The notes: a model not told the origin generated them from the sequence alone. 64,000 bases of DNA from an uncultured Desulfospira sp. (GCA_963663165.1 OY760175.1:3800153-3864152); one strand, 5' to 3'; positions 9,992-63,779 are shown, numbered from the stretch's first letter. A program made the numbers and translations.

Positions 9992-10048
9992 CATATTTCA
10001 AATATGATAACTTCCCGTTATCCGTAGAATAGAAAAAATATCCCCGTA

Positions 10049-10801
10049 CTAATCTGATTTTAAGGCATCCATGTTAAAGGTTAAGGATGTCCCGTACCAG
10101 ATGATCTGCCTGTCTTTTACCGGCACCTCGATTTTAGCACTGATTAACTGGAAATTTTTATCAGACAGTGTAACGGAAAAACGGTCATCGGTCTTTACCG
10201 TTGTGAGTTTCTGGGCACCGCTGGCCTGGGTCAGGGCGGCCTCATGTATCTGCTGCCCCATAAAATAAAGCCGGACCTGCAGAGACTCGCCCTTGGCCAG
10301 TGCTGCCGGATTTTTTAACGGCACGATTTCAAACCGTTGATTCAACGGTTCCGTGACCCACGGATGCCAGCTCTCTATATGTTTCATGAACTTATAGGAG
10401 TGGCCCTCTTTGACCACATCCTTCAGGCCGGTGATTCTTTTGTTTTGCCAGCCCTGGGTTGTGTGCATCCAGTATTTGTTATAAACCAGGGCCGTTAAAA
10501 CGCTGAAGGGCTGCTGAACTTCCAGATAGGCTCCGGCACTTTCCGGCTTCCATCCAATGCTGACGGGAAGCCATTTTTTGTTTTCAAGGTGTCCGGCCGC
10601 CTGAACAACCCGCTCCGGCTCATAGGGGTCGCCTTGGGCAACCCCTTCCACCATGTGCCCCATCACAATTTCGAACCCTTTTTCCTGTGACCCGTCCAGC
10701 CACCAGTCATGGGCCATGGCCGCCGGCACGGATAAACACAGCAGAGCCGAAACCATTACCGGGATCACAACGGCTTGAAACAAACCATTCTTATTTTTCA
10801 T
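10049..10801 (-). CDS. DUF4198-like periplasmic protein (metal-uptake accessory, paired with TonB receptor)
   Basis: Signal peptide followed by AHDWWL, the usual mature N-terminus of DUF4198 proteins. Lies 23 nt downstream of the TonB-dependent receptor. Confidence 0.55.
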   Translation of the reverse strand: MKNKNGLFQAVVIPVMVSALLCLSVPAAMAHDWWLDGSQEKGFEIVMGHMVEGVAQGDPYEPERVVQAAGHLENKKWLPVSIGWKPESAGAYLEVQQPFSVLTALVYNKYWMHTTQGWQNKRITGLKDVVKEGHSYKFMKHIESWHPWVTEPLNQRFEIVPLKNPAALAKGESLQVRLYFMGQQIHEAALTQASGAQKLTTVKTDDRFSVTLSDKNFQLISAKIEVPVKDRQIIWYGTSLTFNMDALKSD

Positions 10802-10823
10802 GATTCCACCTAATTTTTGAGTA

Positions 10824-12884
10824 TCAGAATGTATACTTAACGGTCAGTTGAAGATATCTGCCATCGCTGCCTGAGTATTGATTGTACCCGCTCCAGTTGC
10901 TGACATATTCTGAATAGGTTTCATCAAACAGGTTTTTCACATCAAACGAAATGGTCCACTGATCGGAAAACGTATGGGCGATTTTAAGGTCAACCACATC
11001 GTATCCCCCGTAACTATCGGTATTATCACTTCGGGTATACCATTTTCCCACCTTGTTATACCAGACGCGCAACGAGGTGTTGGTGGGGAATATATACTCA
11101 ACCCCCAGCTTTAAGATTGATTCCGGTATGGCAGAGACATGGTTGCCGTAATATGATTTGCTATCATCTTCATAGGTGGCTTCCTGGTAGGTATAGGCCC
11201 CGAAAAACTGGAGATTTTCCAACGGCATCAGGTTTATCTCGATTTCGTGCCCTTTCCGGACCGTTTCCCCCTGGTAGCTATAGCCCCATTCGTTGGCGAT
11301 GCTGTCATAAGTACCGGTGATTTCATCATCATTTACACTGTAAAAATAAGCATAACGAATCATAATCTGTTCAATGGGGCTGGCCTTGATTCCGCCTTCA
11401 TACTGGATAAAATTGCTTTCATCGGGTGCGTCTGAGGCATATTTGGCTTCATTTTTGGGCAGCTGAAACCCAGTCCCGACATTAGCGTATATGCTGTAAT
11501 TGGGCAAAAATGTATAAATCACGCCCGCGCTGTATGTCCAGATATTATAATCGCTGAGGTCCATGGAGATGTCTGTCAGCCGGTTGGTGAAATCACCGTC
11601 AAATGTGTCAAAACGGCCCCCCGCAAACAGGCGCAGCATCTCAGACGGATCCCAGTTGGCCTTGGCGTATATCCCGAAATTGAAAAGGTTGTAATCGTAA
11701 TCCCTGGACTGAGAATCCCGGTGCTGGCTGGTGGTATTGTATTTTGTTTCATCCGTGTCATAATTTCTGTAATCAAATCCAACATCAAACCGCAGGTTCT
11801 GGCCTTGTGCCATGGGCATATCATACCCGAGGTTCATCAAGGCACCATAAACGTTGTGTTCAAAATGGCCTTCGGTCTGATTGCCGCCGTATGTTGAGAA
11901 CCGGCTGTAGTCCACATCCTGATACCAGAATTTGAACGTCAGGGGCGTGTTCTCATTGATATCCCAGTCCGCATGCAGCTGAATTTCAGCCATATCCGTA
12001 TATCCGCCGTCATCATCCATTACCGACTGGGTGGGATCGGCCTCCCACTCAGGTTCCGTCAGGTATCCGGCAGCATCCCAGTCCGCAGAAAACGCATGGG
12101 CGATCAGGCCGATCTGAAGGTCCTGGCTTGGGCGGTAGAACCACTTGCCGTATATATTCTGACGTTCATAGTCGCTGCTATCCCGGTATCCTTCCGTATC
12201 ATAGGCCTCCACGACATAAACCTGGTTGAATTTGTTATCAAAATGTTCGGAACCAATGCTGGCAAATCCCTTTTTGGTATCAAAACTGCCATAGGCCAGT
12301 TTGGCTGTTCCAAAATCTCCGCGCTTGCGGGTGTTGAAGTGAACGCTGCCAGCCCTGCACCAGTTACCGTATTGGGCGTCAATGGGGCCTTTAACAACTT
12401 CAATGCTTTCAATGTCGTCAACACTTAGCTGGGTTAAATCCGCAGCACCATCGGCCGGGCCGAACGGATAGTTGTAGGGAATTCCGTCAATGGTGATCAG
12501 GGTATGCTGCCCGTGTCCGCCGGTACCAAAGCCCCTCATGGTAAACCCATTTGGAACGCTCCCCGAATTGTAATCCCCGACTGCAAATCCGGGAACGATC
12601 CGCAAAATATCCAGCGCAGTATCGGCTTCCTGTTTAGCGATTTCATCCTCTCCGATGATATCCACTGAACCGGGCAGGTCCGCAGAATGGTTAACTTTCT
12701 TTGCTTTTACCGTCATGTCGCCGATATTCATGATCACCTGGTTTTTTTCCTCATCCGTGTCCAAGGCCTCCTGAGCCTGGCTGGTTGAAGTATCTTCAGC
12801 AGCTACCGCAAAAGGACCGGCAACAAGAATACCTGCAATAATTAAAATCCACATCCGCAGCAACCAGCTAGCTGTACCTTTCAT
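10824..12884 (-). CDS. TonB-dependent outer-membrane receptor
   Basis: Start moved to the ATG at 12884 (RBS AAGGAGA, signal MKGTASWLLRMWILIIAGILVAGPFAVAA). Plug motifs include DILRIVPGF and TMRGFG. Beta-barrel repeats present. Terminal aromatic ...LQLTVKYTF. Confidence 0.9.
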   Translation of the reverse strand: MKGTASWLLRMWILIIAGILVAGPFAVAAEDTSTSQAQEALDTDEEKNQVIMNIGDMTVKAKKVNHSADLPGSVDIIGEDEIAKQEADTALDILRIVPGFAVGDYNSGSVPNGFTMRGFGTGGHGQHTLITIDGIPYNYPFGPADGAADLTQLSVDDIESIEVVKGPIDAQYGNWCRAGSVHFNTRKRGDFGTAKLAYGSFDTKKGFASIGSEHFDNKFNQVYVVEAYDTEGYRDSSDYERQNIYGKWFYRPSQDLQIGLIAHAFSADWDAAGYLTEPEWEADPTQSVMDDDGGYTDMAEIQLHADWDINENTPLTFKFWYQDVDYSRFSTYGGNQTEGHFEHNVYGALMNLGYDMPMAQGQNLRFDVGFDYRNYDTDETKYNTTSQHRDSQSRDYDYNLFNFGIYAKANWDPSEMLRLFAGGRFDTFDGDFTNRLTDISMDLSDYNIWTYSAGVIYTFLPNYSIYANVGTGFQLPKNEAKYASDAPDESNFIQYEGGIKASPIEQIMIRYAYFYSVNDDEITGTYDSIANEWGYSYQGETVRKGHEIEINLMPLENLQFFGAYTYQEATYEDDSKSYYGNHVSAIPESILKLGVEYIFPTNTSLRVWYNKVGKWYTRSDNTDSYGGYDVVDLKIAHTFSDQWTISFDVKNLFDETYSEYVSNWSGYNQYSGSDGRYLQLTVKYTF

Positions 12885-13321: not shown

Positions 13322-14209
13322 TTAGAAAGAGCCTTCTTCCCAGGCCACCAGCCTTACGAATCCGCCGTCAGCCATTTCACAGCGGAAGGGGAATGCGGCA
13401 ATGATCATCCGTTTGCCGGTCACCGCATCAATATCGCCGCCTGCGTTCTCAACGGTAATCACGCCGGCCTGCATGTACATCCGGTGGCAGGGTTCATAAT
13501 CGGGGAATTCCACATCCGGGTCTTTGCCGGTTGCTTTGCGGTATGCCTTGTCCAGCCACGGCATCTGCTCTTTGAGGGGGTAGTGCCAGAGCGGAGAATC
13601 TGTGGCGCCCCAGGTGCCTGAGATCCCTTTGATTTTCTTGTCATGGATCAGGTATTCGGCAATTTCAGGCCCCATGCCGGGATAGTAGTTGTAATATTTA
13701 TCGTTATTGATTCTCCAATAATCTTGGAAACCGGTGTTGATCACCACCCAGTCATTTTCCCGGATATCCAGGCCGTCTTTTGCACAGGCTTTGTCCACAT
13801 CTTCGGGCATGATGATTTTCCACAAATCGGGTTCAAAACCGGTTTTCCAGGTCGCCTCAAACTCCTCTTTTAAATGACGCATATCCAGAATGACGCCGGT
13901 CCCCACGCAGTACTCTAACGGCAGCTCATTGAGTGAATACCCGTTGCGCTCACGGTCCACTTCCTCTTCATGGAGGACATGGTTGGGGGCATCCATATGG
14001 GTGCCGGCATGGAGGGTGCCGGTATAGGTCATGGTCCGCTTATGGAAACGGCCCAGATACTGTCCTCTCGGGAATGCAAGGTCCTGGCGAGGTCCGGGGA
14101 AAGGCCATAACGGCGTATCAACTCCCCAGGGTTGAGAAAGATCATAAATCTTGGTCATTTTGTTTTTGTCAAGGTACATTCTGCTTTTATCTAGCGGCAT
14201 ATATGCCAT
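13322..14209 (-). CDS. Cyclase-family (PF04199-like, kynurenine formamidase fold) metal hydrolase
   Basis: 295 aa. HAGTHMDAPNH matches the HxGTHxDxPxH metal motif. RBS AAGGAG lies 9 nt upstream of the ATG. Confidence 0.8.
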   Translation of the reverse strand: MAYMPLDKSRMYLDKNKMTKIYDLSQPWGVDTPLWPFPGPRQDLAFPRGQYLGRFHKRTMTYTGTLHAGTHMDAPNHVLHEEEVDRERNGYSLNELPLEYCVGTGVILDMRHLKEEFEATWKTGFEPDLWKIIMPEDVDKACAKDGLDIRENDWVVINTGFQDYWRINNDKYYNYYPGMGPEIAEYLIHDKKIKGISGTWGATDSPLWHYPLKEQMPWLDKAYRKATGKDPDVEFPDYEPCHRMYMQAGVITVENAGGDIDAVTGKRMIIAAFPFRCEMADGGFVRLVAWEEGSF

Positions 14210-14433
14210 GGCTTCTGTCTCCTTTTATTTTATTCTAGTTGAAACCGGCCAAAGCCGGCGGCCAAGAAGATACGGTTTTGTATATATTGTGGGCCGGTAT
14301 TTCATATTCTCAAATATATAGGACGGAAATATATGTCAAGAAAAAAAACATTTTTGTGCAAAATTTATGGTTTTAGGCCAAAAATTTAGAAAAATTAATT
14401 GACATATTACCGATAATTTGCAACATTGCGCCA

Positions 14434-15351
14434 ATGAATAATACTGATCTAAAATTGATGAAAGAACTCCAAAAAAATGGGGCGGTTAGCTACTCAGAAC
14501 TGTCCACCATACTTGGGGTTACCCCGAAAACTGTGGGCAAACGGGTTGAAAAGCTGATCCAGTCGAGGATCATATCGGTCAGGGCACAGCCGAACCCTTA
14601 CAAACTCGGGCTGTCCGCCTGTGCCATTGTGGCCATTAAAGCCAATGCCACCGCCGTTGAAGGAATATGTGATCATCTGGCCGGCTTCTTTCATGTTAAT
14701 CTGGTTCAGGTCTTTTTCGGAAGATTTGATATCATGGCCATTGTCTATTTTCCCGATTTTGAGATGCTGCATCAGTTTATTGATAATGAGTTGTATACCA
14801 TCGAAGGCGTCACCCAGCTCGAACTATTCTTTGTCCATGAAATTTTCAAACGGTATGATCGTTTTTTTAAAAAAGAACCGTTCCAGAAAGAACCGGTAAA
14901 ATTATCCCAGAACGACTGGGAGCTTATTTCAGAACTGTCCAAAGACGGGCGTTTAAACCCTTCTGTCCTGGCTGAAAAACTCGGCATCCATGTAACCACG
15001 GTCTACCGCAGAATCTCGGCTTTAACCGAAGGGGATATTATTAAAATAAGCGGGGTGCCCAACCCGCTGAAGTTTGCTTACTCGGCCAGTGCTTATATAA
15101 TGTTGGACGTCAATCCCAATAATGTACAGCAGATCTGTAAAAAACTGCTCCCTTATAAGGAAGTTCATTTCATCATGACACTGGGCAGGCGGTCAGGAAT
15201 GATTATCTGTGTTCATTCCACGGATACGGCATCGCTGCATCAGTTTCTTCAAAAGGTGATCATCCCCTTAGACGGTATCATTGATACGGAAACCTTAATC
15301 GGGGCATCGGTGAAAAAAACATATTACGGATGGCTGATCGGAATCGGATAG
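14434..15351 (+). CDS. Tandem (duplicated) Lrp/AsnC-family transcriptional regulator
   Basis: 305 aa with two HTH_AsnC-like modules (LMKELQKNGAVSYSELSTILGVTPKTVGKRVEKL and LISELSKDGRLNPSVLAEKLGIHVTTVYRRISAL). Each is followed by a RAM-like domain. Paralog of 47214-48206. Confidence 0.8.
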   Translation: MNNTDLKLMKELQKNGAVSYSELSTILGVTPKTVGKRVEKLIQSRIISVRAQPNPYKLGLSACAIVAIKANATAVEGICDHLAGFFHVNLVQVFFGRFDIMAIVYFPDFEMLHQFIDNELYTIEGVTQLELFFVHEIFKRYDRFFKKEPFQKEPVKLSQNDWELISELSKDGRLNPSVLAEKLGIHVTTVYRRISALTEGDIIKISGVPNPLKFAYSASAYIMLDVNPNNVQQICKKLLPYKEVHFIMTLGRRSGMIICVHSTDTASLHQFLQKVIIPLDGIIDTETLIGASVKKTYYGWLIGIG

Positions 15352-15360
15352 GCGGCCCTG

Positions 15361-15544
15361 CATAACGGCCACGGGCCGCCTTGGTTATCCAACCGAGAGC
15401 CGCCCACAACGAATAAGGAAAGTCTTCTCAGGACGTTAGTGAGACTTTTATATAACGGCCACGGGCCGTCTTGGTTATCCAACCAAGAACCGCCCACAAC
15501 AAATATTGAAAGTCTTATCAGGATGTTAGTGAGACTTTCATATA
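15361..15544 (+). repeat. Two tandem copies of a 90-bp structured repeat
   Basis: ATAACGGCCACGGGCCG.CTTGGTTATCCAACC...GAAAGTCTT.TCAGGA.GTTAGTGAGACTTT starts at 15362 and again at 15452. A third, inverted copy lies at 28696-28790. Confidence 0.85.
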
Positions 15545-15658
15545 AAACGAAATACCGGCGTCTGCATTTTTTTAAGGCAGATGCCCAGGCTATAGACAAG
15601 CCCCGGCAGGGGTTAATTTTAATTAACAGAATGCAAATGACTAGGAGGCTTAAGGAAT

Positions 15659-15985
15659 ATGAAAGTTGTCAAAAATGCACAAGGTACGCCTTACGAAGCG
15701 CCTAAACATTTTGGTGTTTACGGAATTCAAAAATTTGTAGAAGAATCAAAACGGGTCAAGGTATTTTACTCATACTTTCAACCCAACGGCGGGGCTGACA
15801 TGTCCGGGTCCCCCACCGAAAAAATATACTATCTGGTCAGCGGCAGTATTACCGTAAAAGGCACATCAGAAGAACACGTTATGAACCAGGGCGATATCAT
15901 TTTTATCGACGCCGGCGAAGAACGTGAAATCACCATCAACGACGGCAAACCGGCCGAGCTGCTGGTGTTTATTATCACGCCTTAA
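15659..15985 (+). CDS. Cupin-domain small protein
   Basis: 108 aa. The pattern EKIYYLVSGSITV...GDIIFIDAGEEREI is typical of a single cupin barrel. RBS AGGAGG upstream. Confidence 0.6.
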   Translation: MKVVKNAQGTPYEAPKHFGVYGIQKFVEESKRVKVFYSYFQPNGGADMSGSPTEKIYYLVSGSITVKGTSEEHVMNQGDIIFIDAGEEREITINDGKPAELLVFIITP

Positions 15986-16036
15986 CAGAGGTTTAACAAA
16001 GCGTAACCATTCAACAAATATTGAAAAGGATGACCA

Positions 16037-16804
16037 ATGACAGATATATTCAGATTAGACAATAAAGTCGCTGTGGTTATCGGTGGGGCCGGCGGAATCG
16101 GAGAAGCCTGTTCTGTTGGACTGGCAAAACAGGGCGCCACCACCATTATTGCCAGCCGGAACCTGGAAAAGGTTCAGGCCGTTGCCGATGACATCGCATC
16201 CAAAACCGGGGCCACAACCGGCGCCTTTCAGGTGGATGCCACGGATGAAGCCAGCGTCACCAAGCTGGCCGCAGATATTGCCGAAAAATACGGCAAAATA
16301 GACATCCTGGTCAACACCCACGGCATGAACAAAAAAGGCGCGCCCCTGGAATTTGACATGAATGACTGGGACCACTTGTTTTCCGTCAACGTCAAAGGGG
16401 TCATGATGGCCTGCCGGGCCTTTGCCAAATACATGATTGACCAGGGAAAAGGCAAAATCATTAACATGTCCTCTGTCCGGGGCATCCGGGGCACCGGCGG
16501 CGGCAATGTGGCCTATGGTGCCACCAAAGGCGCCGTAGACATGATCACCCGTATGCTGGCTGCCGAATGGGCACCGTACAACATCAATGTCAATGCCATG
16601 GCCCCCTCTCTGGTCCTGACAGACACCATTAAAAAAGCCGTGGCCCCGGACCGCCTGGAAATGCTGGCCAAAAGCAGCCTTTTCAAACGCCTGGGCACCC
16701 CGGAGGAAATGGCAGGGGCCTGTGTGTTCCTGGCCTCTGAGGCATCAGATTTCATGACCGGCCAGATTCTTTATGTAGACGGCGGACTGACAGCTGTGGG
16801 ATAG
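16037..16804 (+). CDS. Short-chain dehydrogenase/reductase (classical SDR)
   Basis: 255 aa. GGAGGIGEA is the TGxxxGxG-type NAD(P) motif, and SS...YGATKGA is the catalytic S-YxxxK. C-terminus is ...ILYVDGGLTA. Confidence 0.9.
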   Translation: MTDIFRLDNKVAVVIGGAGGIGEACSVGLAKQGATTIIASRNLEKVQAVADDIASKTGATTGAFQVDATDEASVTKLAADIAEKYGKIDILVNTHGMNKKGAPLEFDMNDWDHLFSVNVKGVMMACRAFAKYMIDQGKGKIINMSSVRGIRGTGGGNVAYGATKGAVDMITRMLAAEWAPYNINVNAMAPSLVLTDTIKKAVAPDRLEMLAKSSLFKRLGTPEEMAGACVFLASEASDFMTGQILYVDGGLTAVG

Positions 16805-16940
16805 AAACACACCTGCCTTGCGTAACTTAAGTTCTTAACCATTGTCCTGATTGCCCCATGGGTTGGTAAAATTCAACCCCCAGGGTCATCAGGACAATGG
16901 TGTTGCATTGGACAATCTTATAATATAAGGAGAAGGGTTC

Positions 16941-18140
16941 ATGCGCTTCCGGGTTACGGCCATTATCATTGCAGGGTTTACCACTATATTTGCCGCCTTC
17001 GGCATCCGGTATTCATACGGTGTCTTACTGCCGGAAATGCTTTCCTCTCTGGCCATCTCCAACACCGAGGCCGGTATCATCTACTCTTCCTATTTTCTGA
17101 TCTATACCTTGAGTTCTCCCGTGCTGGGGTTGATGGTGGACCGGACCAATGCACGGGTTCTGCTGACTGTTTTTGTCGCTCTGCTGGGCCTTGGCGGCTG
17201 CCTGATGTCAACGGCATCAACCGTTTTAACGGCCAGTTTCTTTTTTGCCATTGCCGGGCTTGGCCATTCCGCATGCTGGGCCCCCGTGGTCACCGTGGTC
17301 ATGCGATGGGTAAGCCGGGAAAGAAGGGGAATCGTTCTGTCCGTCGTCGACCTGGGAAGCGCCAGCAGCATCGCCTTCTGGAGCTTTTTGATTCCCATTA
17401 TCATCGGTTCATTCGAGTGGCGGCTGGTCTGGGTTTTACTCGGGTTAACCGCCCTGATGGCGGCGGGGTTGAACTTTTTTGCCATCAAGGACCGGCCTTC
17501 CTGCCCCACCGGACCTGAAGAAACATTGAAAAAGCCCAGTGCCTCCATCCGGGATACCTACCGGATCATTTTTTCATACCGTAGCTTTCACCTGATTGCC
17601 CTGTCCTACATGATGATCAGTTTTGCCATCCTCATTCCCTTTACCTTTTTGACCGCCTACAGCACCCAGAAGCTCAATATTCCTTATTCATCGGCAGCCC
17701 TTCTCATAGCGGTCATCGGCATTTCAGGATCTGTGGGCAAACTGATTCTCGGCTATGTCTCCGATCAGGTCGGCCGCATCCGGATCATGATGCTTTGCGG
17801 TGTCCTGGTGGGGTTAGGGGGGGTGGGGCTGGCGTTTGTACAGAATTTTTCCCTGCTGGTGATATCAACCATCATTTTCGGTGCCGGATACGGGACCATC
17901 TGGCCCCAGTACGCCGCTGCGGCCAGGGATTTGTTTTCCGAAGAATACTCGGGCAGCGTCATCGGCCTTTGGACACTGTACCATGGCTTTGGCTCCGTAC
18001 TGGCCCCGATCATTGCCGGCTGGAGCATCGATGCCACCGGGACCTACTTTTATGCCTTTATCATGACCATTGCCAGCGCGGTCCTTGCCCTGGTGCTGCT
18101 GCTGCCGCTAAGTGCCGGCAAAACAGCCGTAAACAAATGA
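16941..18140 (+). CDS. MFS transporter
   Basis: 399 aa with about 12 predicted helices and a GxxxDRxxxR-like loop (GLMVDRTNAR). RBS AAGGAGAAGG upstream. Confidence 0.8.
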   Translation: MRFRVTAIIIAGFTTIFAAFGIRYSYGVLLPEMLSSLAISNTEAGIIYSSYFLIYTLSSPVLGLMVDRTNARVLLTVFVALLGLGGCLMSTASTVLTASFFFAIAGLGHSACWAPVVTVVMRWVSRERRGIVLSVVDLGSASSIAFWSFLIPIIIGSFEWRLVWVLLGLTALMAAGLNFFAIKDRPSCPTGPEETLKKPSASIRDTYRIIFSYRSFHLIALSYMMISFAILIPFTFLTAYSTQKLNIPYSSAALLIAVIGISGSVGKLILGYVSDQVGRIRIMMLCGVLVGLGGVGLAFVQNFSLLVISTIIFGAGYGTIWPQYAAAARDLFSEEYSGSVIGLWTLYHGFGSVLAPIIAGWSIDATGTYFYAFIMTIASAVLALVLLLPLSAGKTAVNK

Positions 18141-43342: not shown

Positions 43343-44176
43343 TTACTTGGCCAATACAATGGTTCCCATGTTTCTATCAACATCGGTTTTGATATCAATG
43401 GTCTGGGTTTTATAGCCGTCATATTCAACATTGATCTGAAATGTTTTGCCGGCTTCAAGGCCCTTAAATTCAAAATCACCCAGAAAATCCGTTGTGCTGG
43501 TCATTTCGGTGCCGTCGCCTTTAAGGGTTACCTTAACCCCCTGGCTGCAAACATCCTGCTGATCTTCAAGCAGGACTTCGCCCATGACCACCCGCTTGGG
43601 AACATTCCGGTAAACCACGTTGGAATGCAATCCAAATGCGGGATTCAGTTGCTCGGTGGGGGCCGATGCAATGTCCTTTGAAAGCGCGCTGTTGGGATCA
43701 TCAAGGTCACCAAACAAGATGGCGCCGCTCGGACATGCCTCAGCGCATCTGGGCTCTTTTGCGCCCTTTTCGAGTAAATGGACACAAAAGCTGCATTTCT
43801 GGGGAACATCCAGAACCGCATTCCAGGAAATGGCCCGGTAGGGGCAATAGGTCATGATGTCTCTGTTGCCTTTTGCCTTTTCAGGGTCAATCACGACGAT
43901 ACCGTCATCCCGGCGGTAAACCTCTCCGTCTACGGCCTTGGCCACACAAGGAGCATCCTTACACTGAAGGCATGGCATGGCAATGTAATCCACCTTAACC
44001 TTGGGGCAGGTTCCCATTTCTTTTTCCGTGACCTTCATAAAGGGTTTGCTGTCATGGGGAATGGCTAACGAAAAGGGCGGATAATCGTTTCCGGAATATT
44101 CGTCCTTGCATGCCAGAAAGCAATTATAGCAGCCATTGCATTTGTTTACATCTATTCTCATTCCATATTTGGCCAT
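43343..44176 (-). CDS. Transhydroxylase-like Mo enzyme, FeS beta subunit 1 (BthL-like)
   Basis: ATG at 44176 (RBS GGAGGG inside the alpha 3' end) gives MAKYGMRIDVNKCNGCYNCFLACKDE... Three ferredoxin Cys groups. C-terminal TDFLGDFEFKGLEAG beta-sandwich tail. Confidence 0.85.
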   Translation of the reverse strand: MAKYGMRIDVNKCNGCYNCFLACKDEYSGNDYPPFSLAIPHDSKPFMKVTEKEMGTCPKVKVDYIAMPCLQCKDAPCVAKAVDGEVYRRDDGIVVIDPEKAKGNRDIMTYCPYRAISWNAVLDVPQKCSFCVHLLEKGAKEPRCAEACPSGAILFGDLDDPNSALSKDIASAPTEQLNPAFGLHSNVVYRNVPKRVVMGEVLLEDQQDVCSQGVKVTLKGDGTEMTSTTDFLGDFEFKGLEAGKTFQINVEYDGYKTQTIDIKTDVDRNMGTIVLAK

Positions 44177-44180
44177 TGGT

Positions 44181-46697
44181 TTAACCCTCCCATTTTCCAA
44201 TTTCAATCAGACAGGTATTTGGTGTCATCCCCGGTACATTCTGGGACATCATGGTGGATGATGTAAGGATATTGACACATCCGCCCCTGTCTACCGAGTC
44301 TGCTTTGCCGGGTTCCAACGGATCATAATTGGCGGCTGATCCATAGCTGTGAACCACCCCTTCGGGAACCCTTTCGGTAATCACTGCGGCACACAGAACC
44401 GTGCCCCGGTCATTGTAGAGTTTAACGATATCTTCCTGCCGAATTCCGCGTTTGGCGGCATCGGCCGGGTTGATCCTCACCGGCCAGTAGGCATAGCCGT
44501 CCTTTTTGATCCGGTGGGTGGGGATATCATTGAGCCAGTCCGTGTGTTTATCATACATGGTATGGAAACTGAACCGCGGATGGGGGCTGATGATCTGAAG
44601 CGGGTATTTTTCCCGGATGGGGCTCTTATGACCTTCCCAGCTTTCAATGTAATGGGGCACAACAGGCCTTTCCTGGTCATCGGGAAGATTTGCTTTAAGG
44701 CTCTGAGAGGCAAATTCAAACTTTCCGCTGTAGGTACTCAGCTCATTGGCTTTGTCTGTTCCCCGTTTGGGATTCATGGAATCCGGGGTATCGCAGGCGC
44801 GGCCTTCATTGAACCAGCGCAATGCCGGGGTCGCCTTGTAATCATCGGACGGGCTGATAATAATGTAGCCTTTTTTATCAAACTCTTCCCAGCTCATGAT
44901 TTTGGGCAGGTCTGAAATTTCATAATAGGCCTTGGCCCAGTCCATGGTCGTTCTGCCACCGTCGGTATAAAGGTCCTTTTTACCCAGTTTTTCAGAAAGC
45001 GCCGTAAAAATTTCATAGTCAGGCCTTGACTCCCACAGGGGCTCAATGGCTTTTTGCTGGCGGACAATGATCCGGTAGTTGCACCCATTGTTGCCATGGT
45101 TGCTGTAGCCGCCGGCGGCGGCCCATTCTGCCCAGTCATCTCTTTCAAGGGCCGTACAGGCCGGAAAGATGATGTCGGCAAACTTGGTTTCACTGCAGTA
45201 CCAGCAATCCTGGTTAACCACGAATTCCAGGTTCGGGCTCTGGTACATCTTTACCCATTTGCTGGTATCGCTCATGGTCCCGATGAAGCTACCGCCGTAT
45301 CTGTAGAACATCTTTATGTCGGAATACCCTTCCAGGGGATAGGTGAATTTCTGGAACTGCATTTCAAGGTTCTGACCGCAGAAACCGGCACCGGTCCAGG
45401 CATCTTTCTTATTTATAATGGCATCGGGAAGGGTCAGTCTGTAAAGGCGCTGCTTGGTGGGGTTGGTGATCTTGGTCCGGGCGGCTCTGGTAATGGCCAT
45501 CCGGGTGTCGAGATCCGCATATCCGGGAACATAAAAAGAGGTGTCGGCCGGACAGCCCATGGTGGTTCCCCAAATGGAGGTACCGGGTTTGCCAAGTCCC
45601 TGCATGGCTTGAAGAAGAACCATCAGTCTGGCCCACTCCGTTCCGAAAGCAGTTCGGCACGCCCCGCCTTCACCGCCCCTGGTACCGGCGGAAAGGATGG
45701 TCTTTTTGGCAGCCCACTCTTTGGCCAGGGACCGAATCTTTCTGGCGGGAATTCCGGACTCTTCTGAAGCCCACTCAGGGGTTTTGGCCTGGCCGTCTTC
45801 TTTTCCGGTGACGTATTCTTTGAACTCGTCAAACCCCACGGTCCTGTTTTCAACAAAGTCCTTGTCATAGGTATCGTCTTCAATCCAGGTGTAGGCGATG
45901 GCCAGGGCAACCGCGGCGTTTGAATCCGGGTTGGGGGGCAGCCAGGTGCCGTCCATATGAGCTGCGGTATAGTTGAAGTAAGGATCAAGGAAAACCATTT
46001 TAACGCCTTTTTCCTTGAGCCACTGCCGCCAGATAACAGAATCCTGGCCGCAGTAAATGGCATGGGTCGTATCCGGGTCATTGGACCAGAAAACGATCAT
46101 CTCAGCATTCTGCATGGCATCTTCAAGAAGGTCATACTGCTCGGGCATGCCCAGGCGCCAGAAAAATCCCCAGGCATGGGTGGCACCCCAGTGCCAGCCT
46201 TCCCAGGAGTCCGGGTTGTCCAGTACCGGCGTAAATTCCAGCATGTCCATGAAGCGGGGGAAGGGTCCCATTTTATAGCCGACAATACCCCAGTTATGGT
46301 GGGATGATGTGATGCCGGTAATGGCAGATCCGCCGTATTCGCCCTGGATTCTCTTGATCTCATTGGCCGTAATATCCAGCGCCTCTTCCCAGCTGATCCG
46401 TTCGTAGCCGGACTTGCCCCTGTTCTGGGGATTTCTCTCCCCATTGGGATCAAAATCCACTCGTTTCATGGGGTATTTAATTCTGTCAGCGGAATACAGG
46501 CGGGTCCTTTCGGCATGGACAAAAGGCGCCAGGTTTGCCTTTAACGGCGGGCTGTATTTTTTTCCATCGGCCTCAATTGTCCAGGGTTTAAAATCCTCTT
46601 CCTGCATAATCAAAGGCTGAACCCTGGTAACTTTTCCGTCGGTTACCGTTACTGATATTGGCCCTTCATTTGTGCAGCTTGAATAGACTTTTTCCAT
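44181..46697 (-). CDS. Pyrogallol-phloroglucinol transhydroxylase-like Mo enzyme, alpha subunit 1 (AthL-like)
   Basis: 838 aa with no N-terminal Cys cluster and no RR leader. Shows RIKYPMKRVDFDPNGERNPQNRGKSGYERISWEEALD, GITSSHHNWG, DNPDSWEGWHWG and RLGMPEQYDLLEDAMQNAEMIVFWSNDP, as I recall for AthL. Confidence 0.85.
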   Translation of the reverse strand: MEKVYSSCTNEGPISVTVTDGKVTRVQPLIMQEEDFKPWTIEADGKKYSPPLKANLAPFVHAERTRLYSADRIKYPMKRVDFDPNGERNPQNRGKSGYERISWEEALDITANEIKRIQGEYGGSAITGITSSHHNWGIVGYKMGPFPRFMDMLEFTPVLDNPDSWEGWHWGATHAWGFFWRLGMPEQYDLLEDAMQNAEMIVFWSNDPDTTHAIYCGQDSVIWRQWLKEKGVKMVFLDPYFNYTAAHMDGTWLPPNPDSNAAVALAIAYTWIEDDTYDKDFVENRTVGFDEFKEYVTGKEDGQAKTPEWASEESGIPARKIRSLAKEWAAKKTILSAGTRGGEGGACRTAFGTEWARLMVLLQAMQGLGKPGTSIWGTTMGCPADTSFYVPGYADLDTRMAITRAARTKITNPTKQRLYRLTLPDAIINKKDAWTGAGFCGQNLEMQFQKFTYPLEGYSDIKMFYRYGGSFIGTMSDTSKWVKMYQSPNLEFVVNQDCWYCSETKFADIIFPACTALERDDWAEWAAAGGYSNHGNNGCNYRIIVRQQKAIEPLWESRPDYEIFTALSEKLGKKDLYTDGGRTTMDWAKAYYEISDLPKIMSWEEFDKKGYIIISPSDDYKATPALRWFNEGRACDTPDSMNPKRGTDKANELSTYSGKFEFASQSLKANLPDDQERPVVPHYIESWEGHKSPIREKYPLQIISPHPRFSFHTMYDKHTDWLNDIPTHRIKKDGYAYWPVRINPADAAKRGIRQEDIVKLYNDRGTVLCAAVITERVPEGVVHSYGSAANYDPLEPGKADSVDRGGCVNILTSSTMMSQNVPGMTPNTCLIEIGKWEG

Positions 46698-47213: not shown

Positions 47214-48206
47214 ATGAAACTCAACAAAACCGACTTTCTGTTGATCAAGGCACTTCAAAAAAACGGCAGCGCCAGCTATTCGGATCTTGCCGGGGAACTG
47301 GGCATTACCGCCAAAACCGTTGCCAAAAAAACCGACCGGCTGCTGAAGAACAAAGTGATCTCCATCATTGCGCGACCCAACCCATACAGGCTCGGGCTTT
47401 TGGAAAGCGCCTTCATTGCCCTGAAAACCAACTTGTTAAAAAACGGGGAAATCTGCCGCTATCTGTCGGATAACTTTAATGTCAACCTGGTCCAGACCGT
47501 GTTCGGCAGCTATGACATCATAGCCGTTGTCTATTTTCAAGACCTGCAGCAGCTTCACAAGTTCATTGATGAAGAACTGTATACCCTGGACGGGGTCATC
47601 AAGGTGAAGACCTATTTCATTAAAGACACCTATAAACGGTACGATCGTTTTTTTGAAAAAGAATCCTTTTCCCAGGAGCCCGTTAAGATGAAAGAGACGG
47701 ACTGGGAGCTTGTCAAAACCCTGTCCTGTGACGCCCGGGCCAACCCGGCCCATTTGGCGGAGGCTTTCGGGATTCACTTATCCACGGTCTACCGGCGCAT
47801 TGAAACCCTGCAGAAAACCGGGGCCATCAGTATCAGTGCCGTGCCCAACCCGTCGCGCCTGACCCCCCATTCATCCAATGCCTTTGTTATTTTAGAAACC
47901 CCTCCCCAGGAGGTGACGCTGCTCTTTAAAAAGCTGCGGGATTGCCCTGAAGTCCATTTTCTGATGACCACCAACACCCACTCCGGCCTGATCGCCTGCA
48001 TCCACTCAAGGGACAATGCCTCGCTGTTTCAATTCATCCAGCAGTATATCTCATCTCCCAACGGGCTTCTCAATGCGGATGTCTTTATCCGGGCCATGGT
48101 CCATAAAACTTATTACAACTGGTTTAAGGATGATGCTGTCCCGGTGGACGGTGAAAAAACTGTGGAACTGGTAGATTCGGGCCTTGAATTGTCAAAAGGG
48201 CTTTAA
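47214..48206 (+). CDS. Tandem (duplicated) Lrp/AsnC-family transcriptional regulator, paralog 2
   Basis: 330 aa, colinear with 14434-15351. Shared blocks include LIKALQKNGSASYSDLAGELGITAKTV, YKRYDRFFEKE and LAEAFGIHLSTVYRRIETL. Confidence 0.8.
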   Translation: MKLNKTDFLLIKALQKNGSASYSDLAGELGITAKTVAKKTDRLLKNKVISIIARPNPYRLGLLESAFIALKTNLLKNGEICRYLSDNFNVNLVQTVFGSYDIIAVVYFQDLQQLHKFIDEELYTLDGVIKVKTYFIKDTYKRYDRFFEKESFSQEPVKMKETDWELVKTLSCDARANPAHLAEAFGIHLSTVYRRIETLQKTGAISISAVPNPSRLTPHSSNAFVILETPPQEVTLLFKKLRDCPEVHFLMTTNTHSGLIACIHSRDNASLFQFIQQYISSPNGLLNADVFIRAMVHKTYYNWFKDDAVPVDGEKTVELVDSGLELSKGL

Positions 48207-61193: not shown

Positions 61194-63779
61194 ATGCCCA
61201 GTCAAGACAAAGAGCACGAGATTGAGAAATCAATATTCAGAGGGCTTGGCTTTTGTTCAATCACCGCAGATGCCAACAGTGTCCAGGTGGACTGCAACAA
61301 AGGCAAAATCATCCGAATACGCCCCCTTCGCTATGATTTAAAATACCCGGACATCACCCCATGGGAAATCAAAGCAAAGGGAAAGAGTTTTTCCCCGTTG
61401 AAAAAATCACTGATTCCCCCCTACAGCCTGGGATACAAGAACCGGGTATATTCCCCCAACCGGGTTCTGTTCCCCATGAAACGGGTGGACTGGGACCCCA
61501 ATGGCAACCGCAATCCCCAGAACAGGGGAAAAAGCAAATACGAGCGGATCAGCTGGGAAGACGCCATTGAGATCATGTACAACGAAATCAACCGGGTAAA
61601 AGAAACCCACGGTATGGAGGCGATCCTGTCCCAGTCCGACGGCCACGGGGAAACCAAATGCGTCCACTCGGCCCATGGCTGCCACAGACGGTTGTTAAGC
61701 CTTCTGGGCGGATACACCCTCCAGACCCGGAATACCGACTCCTGGGAAGGCTGGGTATGGGGCGCCAAACATGTCTGGGGCTGTGAGAACTTAGGCGAAA
61801 TGGTACCGGTCAACAACGTTATCGAGGATGTGGCCAACAATTGTGACGCGGTCTTCTACTGGGGCTGCGACCCTGAGACCACCCCCTGGGGCTTTGACGG
61901 ACAGCTGGCCAGCCGCATCTGCTACTGGTTTACCGAAGTGGGTGTTAAATCCCTTTATGTGTGTCCGGACCTGAACTACGGGGCAGCGGTTCATTCAGAC
62001 AAGTGGGTTCCCATCTACCCCAACACCGACGCCGCCCTTTACCTTGCCATCGCTTACATGTGGATGATTGAAGGCACTTACAACAAAGAATATATCAAGA
62101 CCCACGCCGTGGGATTTGACAAGTTTGAAGAATATGTCCTGGGCAAAGAAGACGGGATTGCCAAAACCCCCAAATGGGCCGCTGAAATTACCGGCATTCC
62201 CTCTTACACCATCAAGGCTTTGGCCCGGTACTGGGGAAAGAAAACCGTGTCCATTGCCATTGGCAACGGCGGCCCGGGCATCCGGGGACCCTATGCCACG
62301 GAACCTGCCCGGCTCCAGGTGCTGCTGCTGGCCATGCAGGGTCTTGGCGGCCCCGGGGTTCACCAGTTCAAAATGATCGAATGGGGCATTTACAATAAAA
62401 AGCACAATATCCCGTTGCCCCCGCCGTCCAAATATATCCCCGTACTTTTGGACGCCAACCGGGGATGGAAGTATCAGGATACCCCCCGGCAGTTTATTCC
62501 CAAAAACCGGATCCACGACGCCATCCTGAACCCGCCCATCACCTGGTACGGCACAGGCCTGTCTCGGGACAGTGTAGAACAGCAGTTCATCCCCTACAAA
62601 TATCCCCTTGACGATGCCCCGGAAGTTCACATGATCTGGACTGACTCCCCCTCATGGATGAGCTGCTGGAACGATACCAACATGCTGGTCAAAGCATTTA
62701 GAAGTGAAAAAATTGAATTTATTGTGGCCCAGCATCCATGGATTGAAAACGACTGCCAGCTGGCCGACCTGATCCTGCCCTCGGCCACGGTCATGGAAGT
62801 TAAAGACATTGGTGTGGAAACTATGAGCGGCCAGTTCTCCTGCGTCTTTTATGAAGACCAGGCCATCCGTCTGCGGGGAGAATCCAAAAGCGATTATGAA
62901 ATCGTCTGCGCCATTGCCGAGCGGTTCGGCATCCTGGATGAATACACCCAGGGCAAAAGCGTGGATGAATGGATTGAACGCGGCCATGAGACCTCAGGGG
63001 CCGGCGATGAAATCACTTTTGAAGAGCTCAAGGAAAAAGGCTACTACGTGGTTCCGCCCGACACCAGCGAACGGGGAACCAAGGCCGGAAAGTACGAATT
63101 CTATGAAGACCCGGAAAAATATCCCCTGTCAACGCCGTCGGGAAAAATCGAGTTTTACTCAGAACGGCTGGCCACCCATTTCCCCGATGACAACGAACGT
63201 CCGCCGGTGCCCCGGTATATTGCCTCAGGCGAATCCCATCAGGAAGACCGCTTAGGGCCCCGGGGAAAAGCGTATCCGCTGCTGGTGGTCTCCAACCACC
63301 CCAAATGGCGGGTCCACTCCCAGCATGACGACATGACCTGGCTTAGAGAAATCCATACCTGCAAGGTTAAAGGTCCGGACGGCTACCAGTACGAACCGGC
63401 CTGGCTCCACCCGGTGGAAGCTGAAAAAAGAGGCATCAAAGACGGCGATGTTGTGATCATCCGCAATGAGCGCGGTAGTGTCATGGCCGGTGCCTGGGTT
63501 ACCGAACGGCTGCGGCCGGATGTGGTTTACATTGACCATGGCGCCCGCTGGGATCCCATTGTCCCGGGCGAACTTGACCGGGGCGGTGCCATCAACACCA
63601 TCACCCCCCATAACGTGACCTCAAAACATGCCGGCGGCATGGTGAGCAGCGGCTTTCTGGTTGAGGTGGAAAAAGCCGACTTGGATGAGCTGCGCAAGCA
63701 ATATCCGGAAAGCTTTAACCAACCCTACCATGACGGGGCAGGACTGCACTCACAGCGCATTATCAATGGAGGAGAGTAA
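61194..63779 (+). CDS. Transhydroxylase-family Mo enzyme, alpha subunit 4 (divergent subgroup)
   Basis: 861 aa. Shows YSPNRVLFPMKRVDWDPNGNRNPQNRGKSKYERISWEDAIE, QSDGHGETKC and RNTDSWEGWVWG. RBS AGGAG. Confidence 0.85.
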   Translation: MPSQDKEHEIEKSIFRGLGFCSITADANSVQVDCNKGKIIRIRPLRYDLKYPDITPWEIKAKGKSFSPLKKSLIPPYSLGYKNRVYSPNRVLFPMKRVDWDPNGNRNPQNRGKSKYERISWEDAIEIMYNEINRVKETHGMEAILSQSDGHGETKCVHSAHGCHRRLLSLLGGYTLQTRNTDSWEGWVWGAKHVWGCENLGEMVPVNNVIEDVANNCDAVFYWGCDPETTPWGFDGQLASRICYWFTEVGVKSLYVCPDLNYGAAVHSDKWVPIYPNTDAALYLAIAYMWMIEGTYNKEYIKTHAVGFDKFEEYVLGKEDGIAKTPKWAAEITGIPSYTIKALARYWGKKTVSIAIGNGGPGIRGPYATEPARLQVLLLAMQGLGGPGVHQFKMIEWGIYNKKHNIPLPPPSKYIPVLLDANRGWKYQDTPRQFIPKNRIHDAILNPPITWYGTGLSRDSVEQQFIPYKYPLDDAPEVHMIWTDSPSWMSCWNDTNMLVKAFRSEKIEFIVAQHPWIENDCQLADLILPSATVMEVKDIGVETMSGQFSCVFYEDQAIRLRGESKSDYEIVCAIAERFGILDEYTQGKSVDEWIERGHETSGAGDEITFEELKEKGYYVVPPDTSERGTKAGKYEFYEDPEKYPLSTPSGKIEFYSERLATHFPDDNERPPVPRYIASGESHQEDRLGPRGKAYPLLVVSNHPKWRVHSQHDDMTWLREIHTCKVKGPDGYQYEPAWLHPVEAEKRGIKDGDVVIIRNERGSVMAGAWVTERLRPDVVYIDHGARWDPIVPGELDRGGAINTITPHNVTSKHAGGMVSSGFLVEVEKADLDELRKQYPESFNQPYHDGAGLHSQRIINGGE

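Follow-up and report, generated by a model that had tools for sequence, protein, structure and literature searches.

A candidate phloroglucinol reductase and ring-opening gene module in an uncultured Desulfospira sp.

A 64,000-nucleotide stretch of the genome of an uncultured Desulfospira sp. (GCA_963663165.1, OY760175.1:3800153-3864152), referred to below as the window and used in full for all positions, contains between nucleotides 13,322 and 18,140 the genes for a cyclase-family metal hydrolase, a tandem Lrp/AsnC-family regulator, a small cupin, a short-chain dehydrogenase/reductase (SDR) and a major facilitator superfamily (MFS) transporter. The source genome, a single contig of 6.74 Mb, is that of a sulfate reducer. 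From sequence comparisons, the locus most likely encodes the first part of an anaerobic route for phloroglucinol-type degradation. On balance, the module probably comprises a phloroglucinol reductase (PGR) and a dihydrophloroglucinol ring hydrolase of lineages sister to the characterised enzymes, along with a conserved cupin, a transporter and the tandem-Lrp regulator, and is tied to the transhydroxylase-like genes lying elsewhere in the window. The first-pass annotation of this stretch had put the locus forward as a candidate PGR and ring-opening module, and the proposal is supported both by the synteny of related clusters in most of 80 species and by the phylogenies of the SDR and the cyclase.

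We infer the substrate, cofactor, regulation and downstream route of the module as follows. The transhydroxylase-like molybdenum enzymes encoded in the window would produce phloroglucinol from pyrogallol or other trihydroxybenzenes, or it would be taken up, possibly by the MFS protein, the proposed substrate importer. The SDR would use NADPH to reduce phloroglucinol to dihydrophloroglucinol, and the cyclase, binding a divalent metal at H67, H71, D73, H77 and E254, would hydrolyse a ring C-C bond in a retro-Claisen reaction to give 3-hydroxy-5-oxohexanoate. Both divergent transcription units would be controlled by the tandem Lrp protein, and the cupin, translated just ahead of the SDR, would serve as a conserved accessory. 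The C6 acid would then be broken down by genes elsewhere in the genome, either in CoA-dependent steps resembling beta-oxidation, as proposed for Pelobacter acidigallici, or by a lone beta-keto-acid cleavage enzyme (BKACE).

The anaerobic phloroglucinol pathway of Clostridium scatologenes was characterised by Zhou et al., mBio 2023 (PMC10470551). Its reductase, CsPGR (A0A0E3M5A2), is an NADPH-dependent SDR of 262 aa, while dihydrophloroglucinol cyclohydrolase (DPGC), represented by CsDPGC (A0A0E3JZE4), is a Mn2+-dependent 'cyclase'-family enzyme of 312 aa, the closest characterised relative of which is isatin hydrolase, at 25% identity; the first-pass annotation had correctly described the ring-opening enzyme as a metal-dependent member of the cyclase family. 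Two further enzymes, TfD of the 3-hydroxyacyl-CoA dehydrogenase (3HCDH) family and the BKACE TAL, are encoded in the same cluster as PGR and DPGC, together with a major-facilitator transporter and a regulator, and a phloroglucinol cluster is also held by Gram-negative sulfate reducers (PMC10470551).

Comparisons with CsDPGC and CsPGR were made through proxies, recognised by the short mass-spectrometry peptides in the proteomics supplement of PMC10470551. The CsDPGC proxy, P0274 from Eubacterium ramulus (336 aa), matches 48 of 67 CsDPGC peptide residues and fits the species and length entries of the CsDPGC UniRef50 cluster. That for CsPGR, matching 67 of 78 peptide residues, is the SDR of locus L108, where it is encoded directly upstream of a 312-aa CsDPGC-type cyclase. 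NCBIfam contains no model naming PGR, DPGC, TfD or TAL. The PDB entries 5G4K and 5G4L, which carry a generic molecule name, are presumed here to be the PGR of Clostridium sp. ATCC BAA-442 from Conradt et al. 2016; a literature search for the two codes returned no matches.

Conservation and phylogeny of the module

The gene content of the locus, the orthology and synteny relating it to other genomes, and the conservation of its catalytic motifs are directly observed. One genome per species was scanned, giving 80 loci (L007-L086) with an orthologue of the cyclase, located at about positions 10001-10900 in most of them; neighbouring open reading frames (ORFs) within 10 kb were clustered and representatives annotated, such that each count below is the number of these 80 loci holding a family. 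The cyclase orthologues are 76-98% identical in 80 species from several phyla, the hosts including Desulfobacterota, Peptococcaceae, Oscillospiraceae (Sporobacter termitidis DSM 10068), Sporomusa silvacetica DSM 10669, Spirochaetia and Synergistaceae, among others. Such conservation across phyla suggests strong constraint on the protein and horizontal spread of the cluster.

The families found beside the cyclase include a TfD-like 3HCDH gene (58 loci, among them 30 of the 37 that span 18 kb or more), an SDR (42), a sodium:solute symporter (40), a BKACE (39), a MerR regulator (37), CoA-transferase A and B (31), a thiolase (27), BthL-like and AthL-like genes (25 and 23, respectively) and a small cupin (20). 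In 25 loci TfD, SDR and BKACE are all present, a combination that corresponds to the gene set published for phloroglucinol. In ten of the 39 genomes examined, including that of Sporomusa silvacetica DSM 10669, the window-type cyclase is the sole PF04199 gene; it is adjoined by a TfD-like gene in all ten, and the full set is present at L046 and L052. If those clusters degrade phloroglucinol, the window lineage must supply the ring-opening step.

The functional tie to transhydroxylase-like genes 30 kb away, proposed in the first-pass annotation, finds support in the synteny of two relatives. At L033, from a Desulfobacteraceae metagenome-assembled genome (MAG), the gene order is AthL-like (838 aa), BthL, BKACE, cyclase, SDR, TfD, AthL-like (862 aa) and BthL. 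The best match of the 838-aa protein in the Desulfospira genome is the alpha 1 protein of the window (73%), and that of the 862-aa protein, encoded downstream of TfD, is alpha 4 (72%). At L009, the genes for the cyclase, SDR and cupin are found no more than 7 kb from an AthL-like gene whose product shares 87% identity with alpha 1. As these loci join the orthologues, the window contains, in scattered form, what is a single cluster in relatives.

The cyclase matches PF04199 and, as the first-pass annotation described, is a 295-aa protein encoded divergently from the regulator and carrying the motif HAGTHMDAPNH. This metal motif has the form HxGTHxDxPxH (H67, H71, D73 and H77) and is followed downstream by the glutamate E254. 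Among 81 orthologues, 125 of the 295 positions are invariant, including these five residues, E239-P-C-H242, P36 and F37, while W35 is kept in 80. The metal-site residues and E254 align with those of Cs-type proteins, and W35-P-F37 aligns with the Cs-type W-P-Y, such that the Trp is kept and the Tyr is replaced by Phe; the equivalent Trp20 and Tyr22 of CsDPGC are substrate-pocket residues (PMC10470551). A tree built from 48 cyclase-family proteins resolves the window lineage as a tight clade (100*), which is a separate deep branch within a DPGC-like superclade (98*) that also contains the Cs-type proteins and two lineages of paired cyclases. Proteins with two fused cyclase domains, of 516-524 aa, are also found among the relatives (P0125, of 524 aa; G409:C181:3016-4239; G419:C7:215606-216829), and could represent the paired cyclases joined in one open frame.

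The SDR has the features of a classical member of its family: the Gly-rich motif GGAGGIG, the Ser-Tyr-Lys triad (S145/Y160/K164) and, after strand 2, a basic residue for NADPH, Arg41. The last aligns with an Arg of the CsPGR proxy and would fit use of NADPH by the protein. The classical SDR fold, the Ser-Tyr-Lys residues and the Arg after strand 2 are likewise common to 5G4K/5G4L. The SDRs adjoining the orthologous cyclase in Desulfobacterota, Peptococcaceae and Synergistaceae are 55-74% identical to that of the window. A search of five genomes with the window SDR gave, in four of them, the SDR encoded in the local window-type cluster as top match (47-71% identity), and the remaining SDRs of those four genomes are at most 39% identical, with the exception of one in G415 (54%) that adjoins a second cyclase-family gene. 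In a tree with 27 additional SDRs of the five genomes as outgroups, the cyclase-adjacent SDRs form a clade (95*), which a second SDR from the Desulfospira genome joins (96*). This window-type clade is placed as sister to the CsPGR-type SDRs with suggestive support (SH-aLRT 92, not starred).

Counter-evidence, alternative readings and downstream genes

Several observations weigh against the assignment of the module to phloroglucinol. Similarity to the characterised enzymes is at background level only: the cyclase is 25% identical to P0274 and 28% to the L108 cyclase, and the SDR is 33% identical to the CsPGR proxy. The cyclase lacks two insertions of the Cs-type proteins, and the window lineage (295-301 aa) is absent from the six UniRef50 clusters given as DPGC homologues in PMC10470551, where the CsDPGC lineage is UniRef50_E3PU66. 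Among the PDB matches of the SDR, 5G4K is only about the 38th (E 2e-35), below gluconate 5-dehydrogenase-like and FabG-like structures; in G348, a genome without a window-type cluster, the CsPGR proxy is only the third-best match of the window SDR. A CsDPGC-type gene is also present in 16 of 41 genomes with a window-type cyclase, neither TfD nor TAL is found in the locus or, as a clear orthologue, in the genome, where the best matches stand in unrelated contexts, and phloroglucinol could instead be the substrate of another module of the same genome, at 1.09 Mb, which has an AthL-like gene of its own.

The distance from the characterised enzymes is evident in other comparisons. Only 19 of the 67 CsDPGC peptide residues match in the window cyclase, as against the 48 in P0274, and the protein falls outside the CsDPGC lineage as delimited by about 50% identity to CsDPGC and a length of 310-345 aa; its own lineage has an N-terminal extension and an insert of 20-27 residues. 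The CsPGR proxy matches 5G4K/5G4L with an E-value of 2e-104. Judged on pairwise similarity alone, the two proteins would be taken for the background relatives that the first-pass annotation named as speaking against its proposal, an impression that is reversed by comparative genomics.

The coexistence of cyclase lineages in the same genomes implies that the window-type and Cs-type enzymes may not be isofunctional; they may differ in substrate, or in regulation only. Genomes with several module types, drawn from the window-type, CsDPGC-type and paired type, include G362 (L040, L109) and G415 (L033, L119, L129).

The module might, as the main but unlikely alternative, carry out the same chemistry on another ring, namely a substituted phloroglucinol or one derived from hydroxyhydroquinone or tetrahydroxybenzene, with true phloroglucinol handled by a CsDPGC-type module or, in this genome, by that at 1.09 Mb. 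The occurrence of both cyclase types in the 16 genomes, with three module types in some (G415, G362), argues against simple redundancy. The Desulfospira genome has two cupin-SDR-cyclase modules in parallel and no fewer than eight AthL-like alpha genes, and the W-P-F found at the counterpart of CsDPGC Trp20/Tyr22 could also favour a different substrate. Sulfate reducers such as Desulfovibrio inopinatus reportedly reduce hydroxyhydroquinone, and we know of no genes that have been assigned to this activity. By contrast, the window-type neighbours (TfD-like, BKACE, CoA-transferase and thiolase) are exactly those required for 3-hydroxy-5-oxohexanoate, and in ten genomes the set is otherwise complete and has no cyclase-family gene but the window-type one. 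Furthermore, aromatic catabolism often involves duplicate enzymes of equal function that are regulated separately. A more doubtful variant has the SDR-cyclase pair as no duplicate of PGR and DPGC but a distinct reduce-and-hydrolyse system for another polyhydroxybenzene, for instance in the reductive hydroxyhydroquinone route of sulfate reducers, with the cupin as a fifth catalytic component that might, for example, handle keto-enol tautomers for the reductase.

An unrelated small-molecule module, in which the SDR would act on sugar acids or polyols as a gluconate 5-dehydrogenase-type enzyme and the cyclase would, in line with automatic annotation, be an amidohydrolase like kynurenine formamidase or isatin hydrolase, is very improbable. 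In the PDB and NCBIfam the SDR is indeed matched best by gluconate 5-dehydrogenase and glucose 1-dehydrogenase-like proteins, all below curated cut-offs, and the cyclase matches only isatin hydrolase (E 2.5e-5) and kynurenine formamidase (E 0.0085) in the PDB, its relatives being labelled 'kynurenine formamidase' by JGI, but the cyclase matches neither the arylformamidase model TIGR03035 nor any other NCBIfam family at E-values up to 0.001, no tryptophan or sugar-acid context is present at this locus or the 80 related loci, the conserved neighbours are phloroglucinol-pathway families and transhydroxylase-like genes, and the SDR phylogeny sets the window protein apart from the 27 other SDRs of five genomes. 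Although isatin hydrolase (5NNA/5NNB) and kynurenine formamidase (4CO9) share the Pfam family and metal-binding motif of the window cyclase, its C-terminal EPCH and VENxGGDxD region is instead common to DPGC-type proteins, and the genomic context differs.

The first-pass annotation pointed to the rest of the genome for the genes of the downstream steps, where the search turned up no clear orthologue of TfD or TAL (best matches 36% and 37%, respectively). However, identity alone cannot settle such orthology, as genuine TfD and TAL of the Cs-type share no more than 33-42% identity with their counterparts in window-type clusters. The best TfD match is a 322-aa 3HCDH-family gene (C1:1701500-1704500; L113:8353-11495) adjoining an FAA-hydrolase-family gene and a DctPQM TRAP transporter. 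This pair at 1.70 Mb could, on the basis of its families, provide an alternative oxidation and cleavage of the C6 keto acid ('TfD plus triacetate hydrolase'); an FAA hydrolase is found in none of the 80 related loci, hence there is no comparative support for it. The genome's lone BKACE, at 3.40 Mb, has a TAXI-TRAP transporter, an RpiR regulator and an aminotransferase as neighbours. As CsTAL-type BKACEs, those of window-type clusters and this one all score as sub-threshold Kce-like, NCBIfam cannot tell whether it is TAL.

The second cupin-SDR-cyclase module of the genome (C1:1084048-1094294; L005) comprises a cupin of 110 aa, an SDR (1085116-1085883) 52% identical to that of the window, an enoyl-CoA hydratase, AthL/BthL-like genes forming a divergent pair (886 and 280 aa), an uncharacterised 254-aa protein, a GntR regulator, two adjacent cyclases of 259 and 267 aa that share 42% identity (1092690-1094294) and MoeA. 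Cyclase pairs of this type also occur in Desulfospira and Desulfatiglandales MAGs, and their lengths and pairing appear to resemble two of the UniRef50 clusters of PMC10470551. The AthL-like alpha genes of the genome, at least eight in number, are situated at 1.09, 1.11, 1.14, 1.15 and 4.39 Mb and in the window.

Layout, accessory genes and flanks

All five genes proposed in the first-pass annotation correspond to ORFs with exactly the coordinates it gave (Table 1), and the identification of a cupin, a classical SDR and an MFS gene beyond the regulator was borne out by their Pfam domains. A Desulfospira MAG (L007) has all five in the same order, with 95-99% protein identity, and this conservation indicates that they are real genes and not chance frames. 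The module is flanked on the cyclase side by genes for a TonB-dependent receptor and a DUF4198 protein, and beyond the MFS gene by a 190-aa ORF without family and a PAS-LuxR regulator gene; none of these four is conserved with the module except in L007.

Table 1. Features of the module and functionally related genes in the window
Feature	Position	Strand	Details
Cyclase-family metal hydrolase	13322..14209	-	295 aa; PF04199 Cyclase, E 5.5e-29
Divergent intergenic region between cyclase and regulator genes	14210..14433	.	224 bp, AT-rich; presumed shared promoter/operator
Tandem Lrp/AsnC-family transcription regulator	14434..15351	+	305 aa; Pfam and NCBIfam matches in both halves
Two tandem copies of an 89-bp dispersed repeat	15361..15538	+	Between the regulator and the cupin-SDR-MFS genes
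Small single-domain cupin	15659..15985	+	108 aa; Pfam Cupin_2
Classical SDR	16037..16804	+	255 aa; adh_short_C2, E 1.3e-61
MFS transporter, oxalate/formate-monocarboxylate type	16941..18140	+	399 aa; MFS_1; Pfam and NCBIfam matches all below curated cut-offs
Transhydroxylase-like beta 1 and alpha 1	43343..46697	-	Functionally linked, outside the module coordinates
Paralogous tandem-Lrp regulator adjoining alpha 1	47214..48206	+	49% identity to the 14434-15351 regulator
Transhydroxylase-like alpha 4	61194..63779	+	Orthologue is the last part of the compact L033 cluster

The small cupin is a conserved companion of phloroglucinol-type clusters, both window-type and CsDPGC-type. Besides the 20 window-type loci, it occurs in three of the four intact Cs-type loci fetched and accompanies both modules of the Desulfospira genome, in most cases with its gene immediately preceding that of the SDR. 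The Cs-type examples are at L108:8347-8688, L110:11507-11857 and L112:14333-14680, and the window cupin is 40% identical (E 6e-22) to that upstream of the CsPGR-type reductase in L108. PMC10470551 makes no mention of this gene. The protein is without the usual His-rich metal motif and ligands; its invariant residues are Y12, A14, H17, F40, P42, G44, E54, Y57, G62 and V103. A confident AlphaFold model (pLDDT 88.6) retrieved only generic small cupins with Foldseek (TM1459, RemF and DddK), providing no functional lead, and a PDB sequence search likewise found only weak, generic cupins. Prediction of a complex between SDR and cupin gave a score of 0.01, which speaks neither for nor against binding. 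The nearest NCBIfam model is a Mycobacterium tuberculosis 'beta-D-galactosidase' (E 1e-12, below cut-off). We take the DPGC homologue of M. tuberculosis to be Rv1716. Such a homologue is among those given in PMC10470551, and the beta-D-galactosidase model is that of Rv1717, in the predicted operon Rv1714-Rv1718 (PMC7873859, PMC2724278).

The regulator has the domains of the Lrp/AsnC family, with the module of HTH and RAM (AsnC_trans_reg) present twice in one chain. Such a duplication, here with 28% identity between the halves (E 4e-22), is unusual among proteins of this family. As the first-pass annotation held, it is a paralogue of the regulator adjoining alpha 1, the 49% identity between the two extending over 302 residues, the full length. 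The genome encodes four such tandem-Lrp paralogues: that of this locus, that adjoining alpha 1, one next to an AthL-like gene at 4.39 Mb and one at 0.08 Mb. The positioning of one paralogue family beside two AthL-like genes as well as at this module suggests a single regulatory logic for the whole route. The intergenic region between the divergent genes (14210-14433) contains promoter matches at consensus level only.

The conspicuous intergenic repeat was considered as a shared regulator site and rejected, being an element dispersed across the genome. Approximately 250 copies of the 89-bp sequence are present genome-wide, in both orientations and at 88-97% identity, and each of the copies here opens with a GC-rich, terminator-like hairpin (at 15366 and 15455). 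By its sequence it looks like an intergenic repeat of the REP or MITE type.

The MFS gene is kept with the module only in the Desulfospira MAG (L007); in other loci its place is taken by a sodium:solute symporter.

Relationship to known pathways and implications

The pathway type is already published (PMC10470551), and the SDR and cyclase described here appear to be sister lineages of the characterised enzymes. In the C. scatologenes pathway the first two steps are carried out by members of the families seen here, a classical SDR together with a PF04199 protein that has HxGTHxDxPxH, and the cluster also includes a transporter and a regulator; in other genomes the orthologues of the window genes are similarly clustered with TfD-like, BKACE, CoA-transferase and thiolase genes. 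At L108, which is closely related to the C. scatologenes cluster, a small cupin homologous to that of the window lies upstream of the CsPGR-type reductase. Unlike the C. scatologenes cluster, the window locus is without TfD and TAL, its regulator is a tandem Lrp protein, and Phe replaces Tyr22.

A second point of comparison is Pelobacter acidigallici, for which the route from pyrogallol to phloroglucinol through the AthL/BthL transhydroxylase (Brune and Schink 1992) is taken as cited in PMC10470551, and for which CoA-dependent downstream steps resembling beta-oxidation have been proposed. This organism likewise belongs to the Desulfobacterota and combines transhydroxylase-type molybdenum enzymes with reductive ring opening of phloroglucinol; a CoA-dependent downstream route without BKACE, as proposed for P. 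acidigallici, would fit the gene content seen here. It differs in that the host of the present module is a sulfate reducer with many AthL-like paralogues.

Phloroglucinol is the hub of the anaerobic mineralisation of tannins and flavonoids. Annotation pipelines miss the pathway; no NCBIfam model names its proteins, and JGI calls the cyclase 'kynurenine formamidase'. The lineage to which the window cyclase belongs holds the position of DPGC in clusters of anaerobes from termite guts, digesters and sediments. Recognising it would make more organisms scorable as polyphenol degraders, and would implicate sulfate reducers as a sink for the plant phenolics of sediments.

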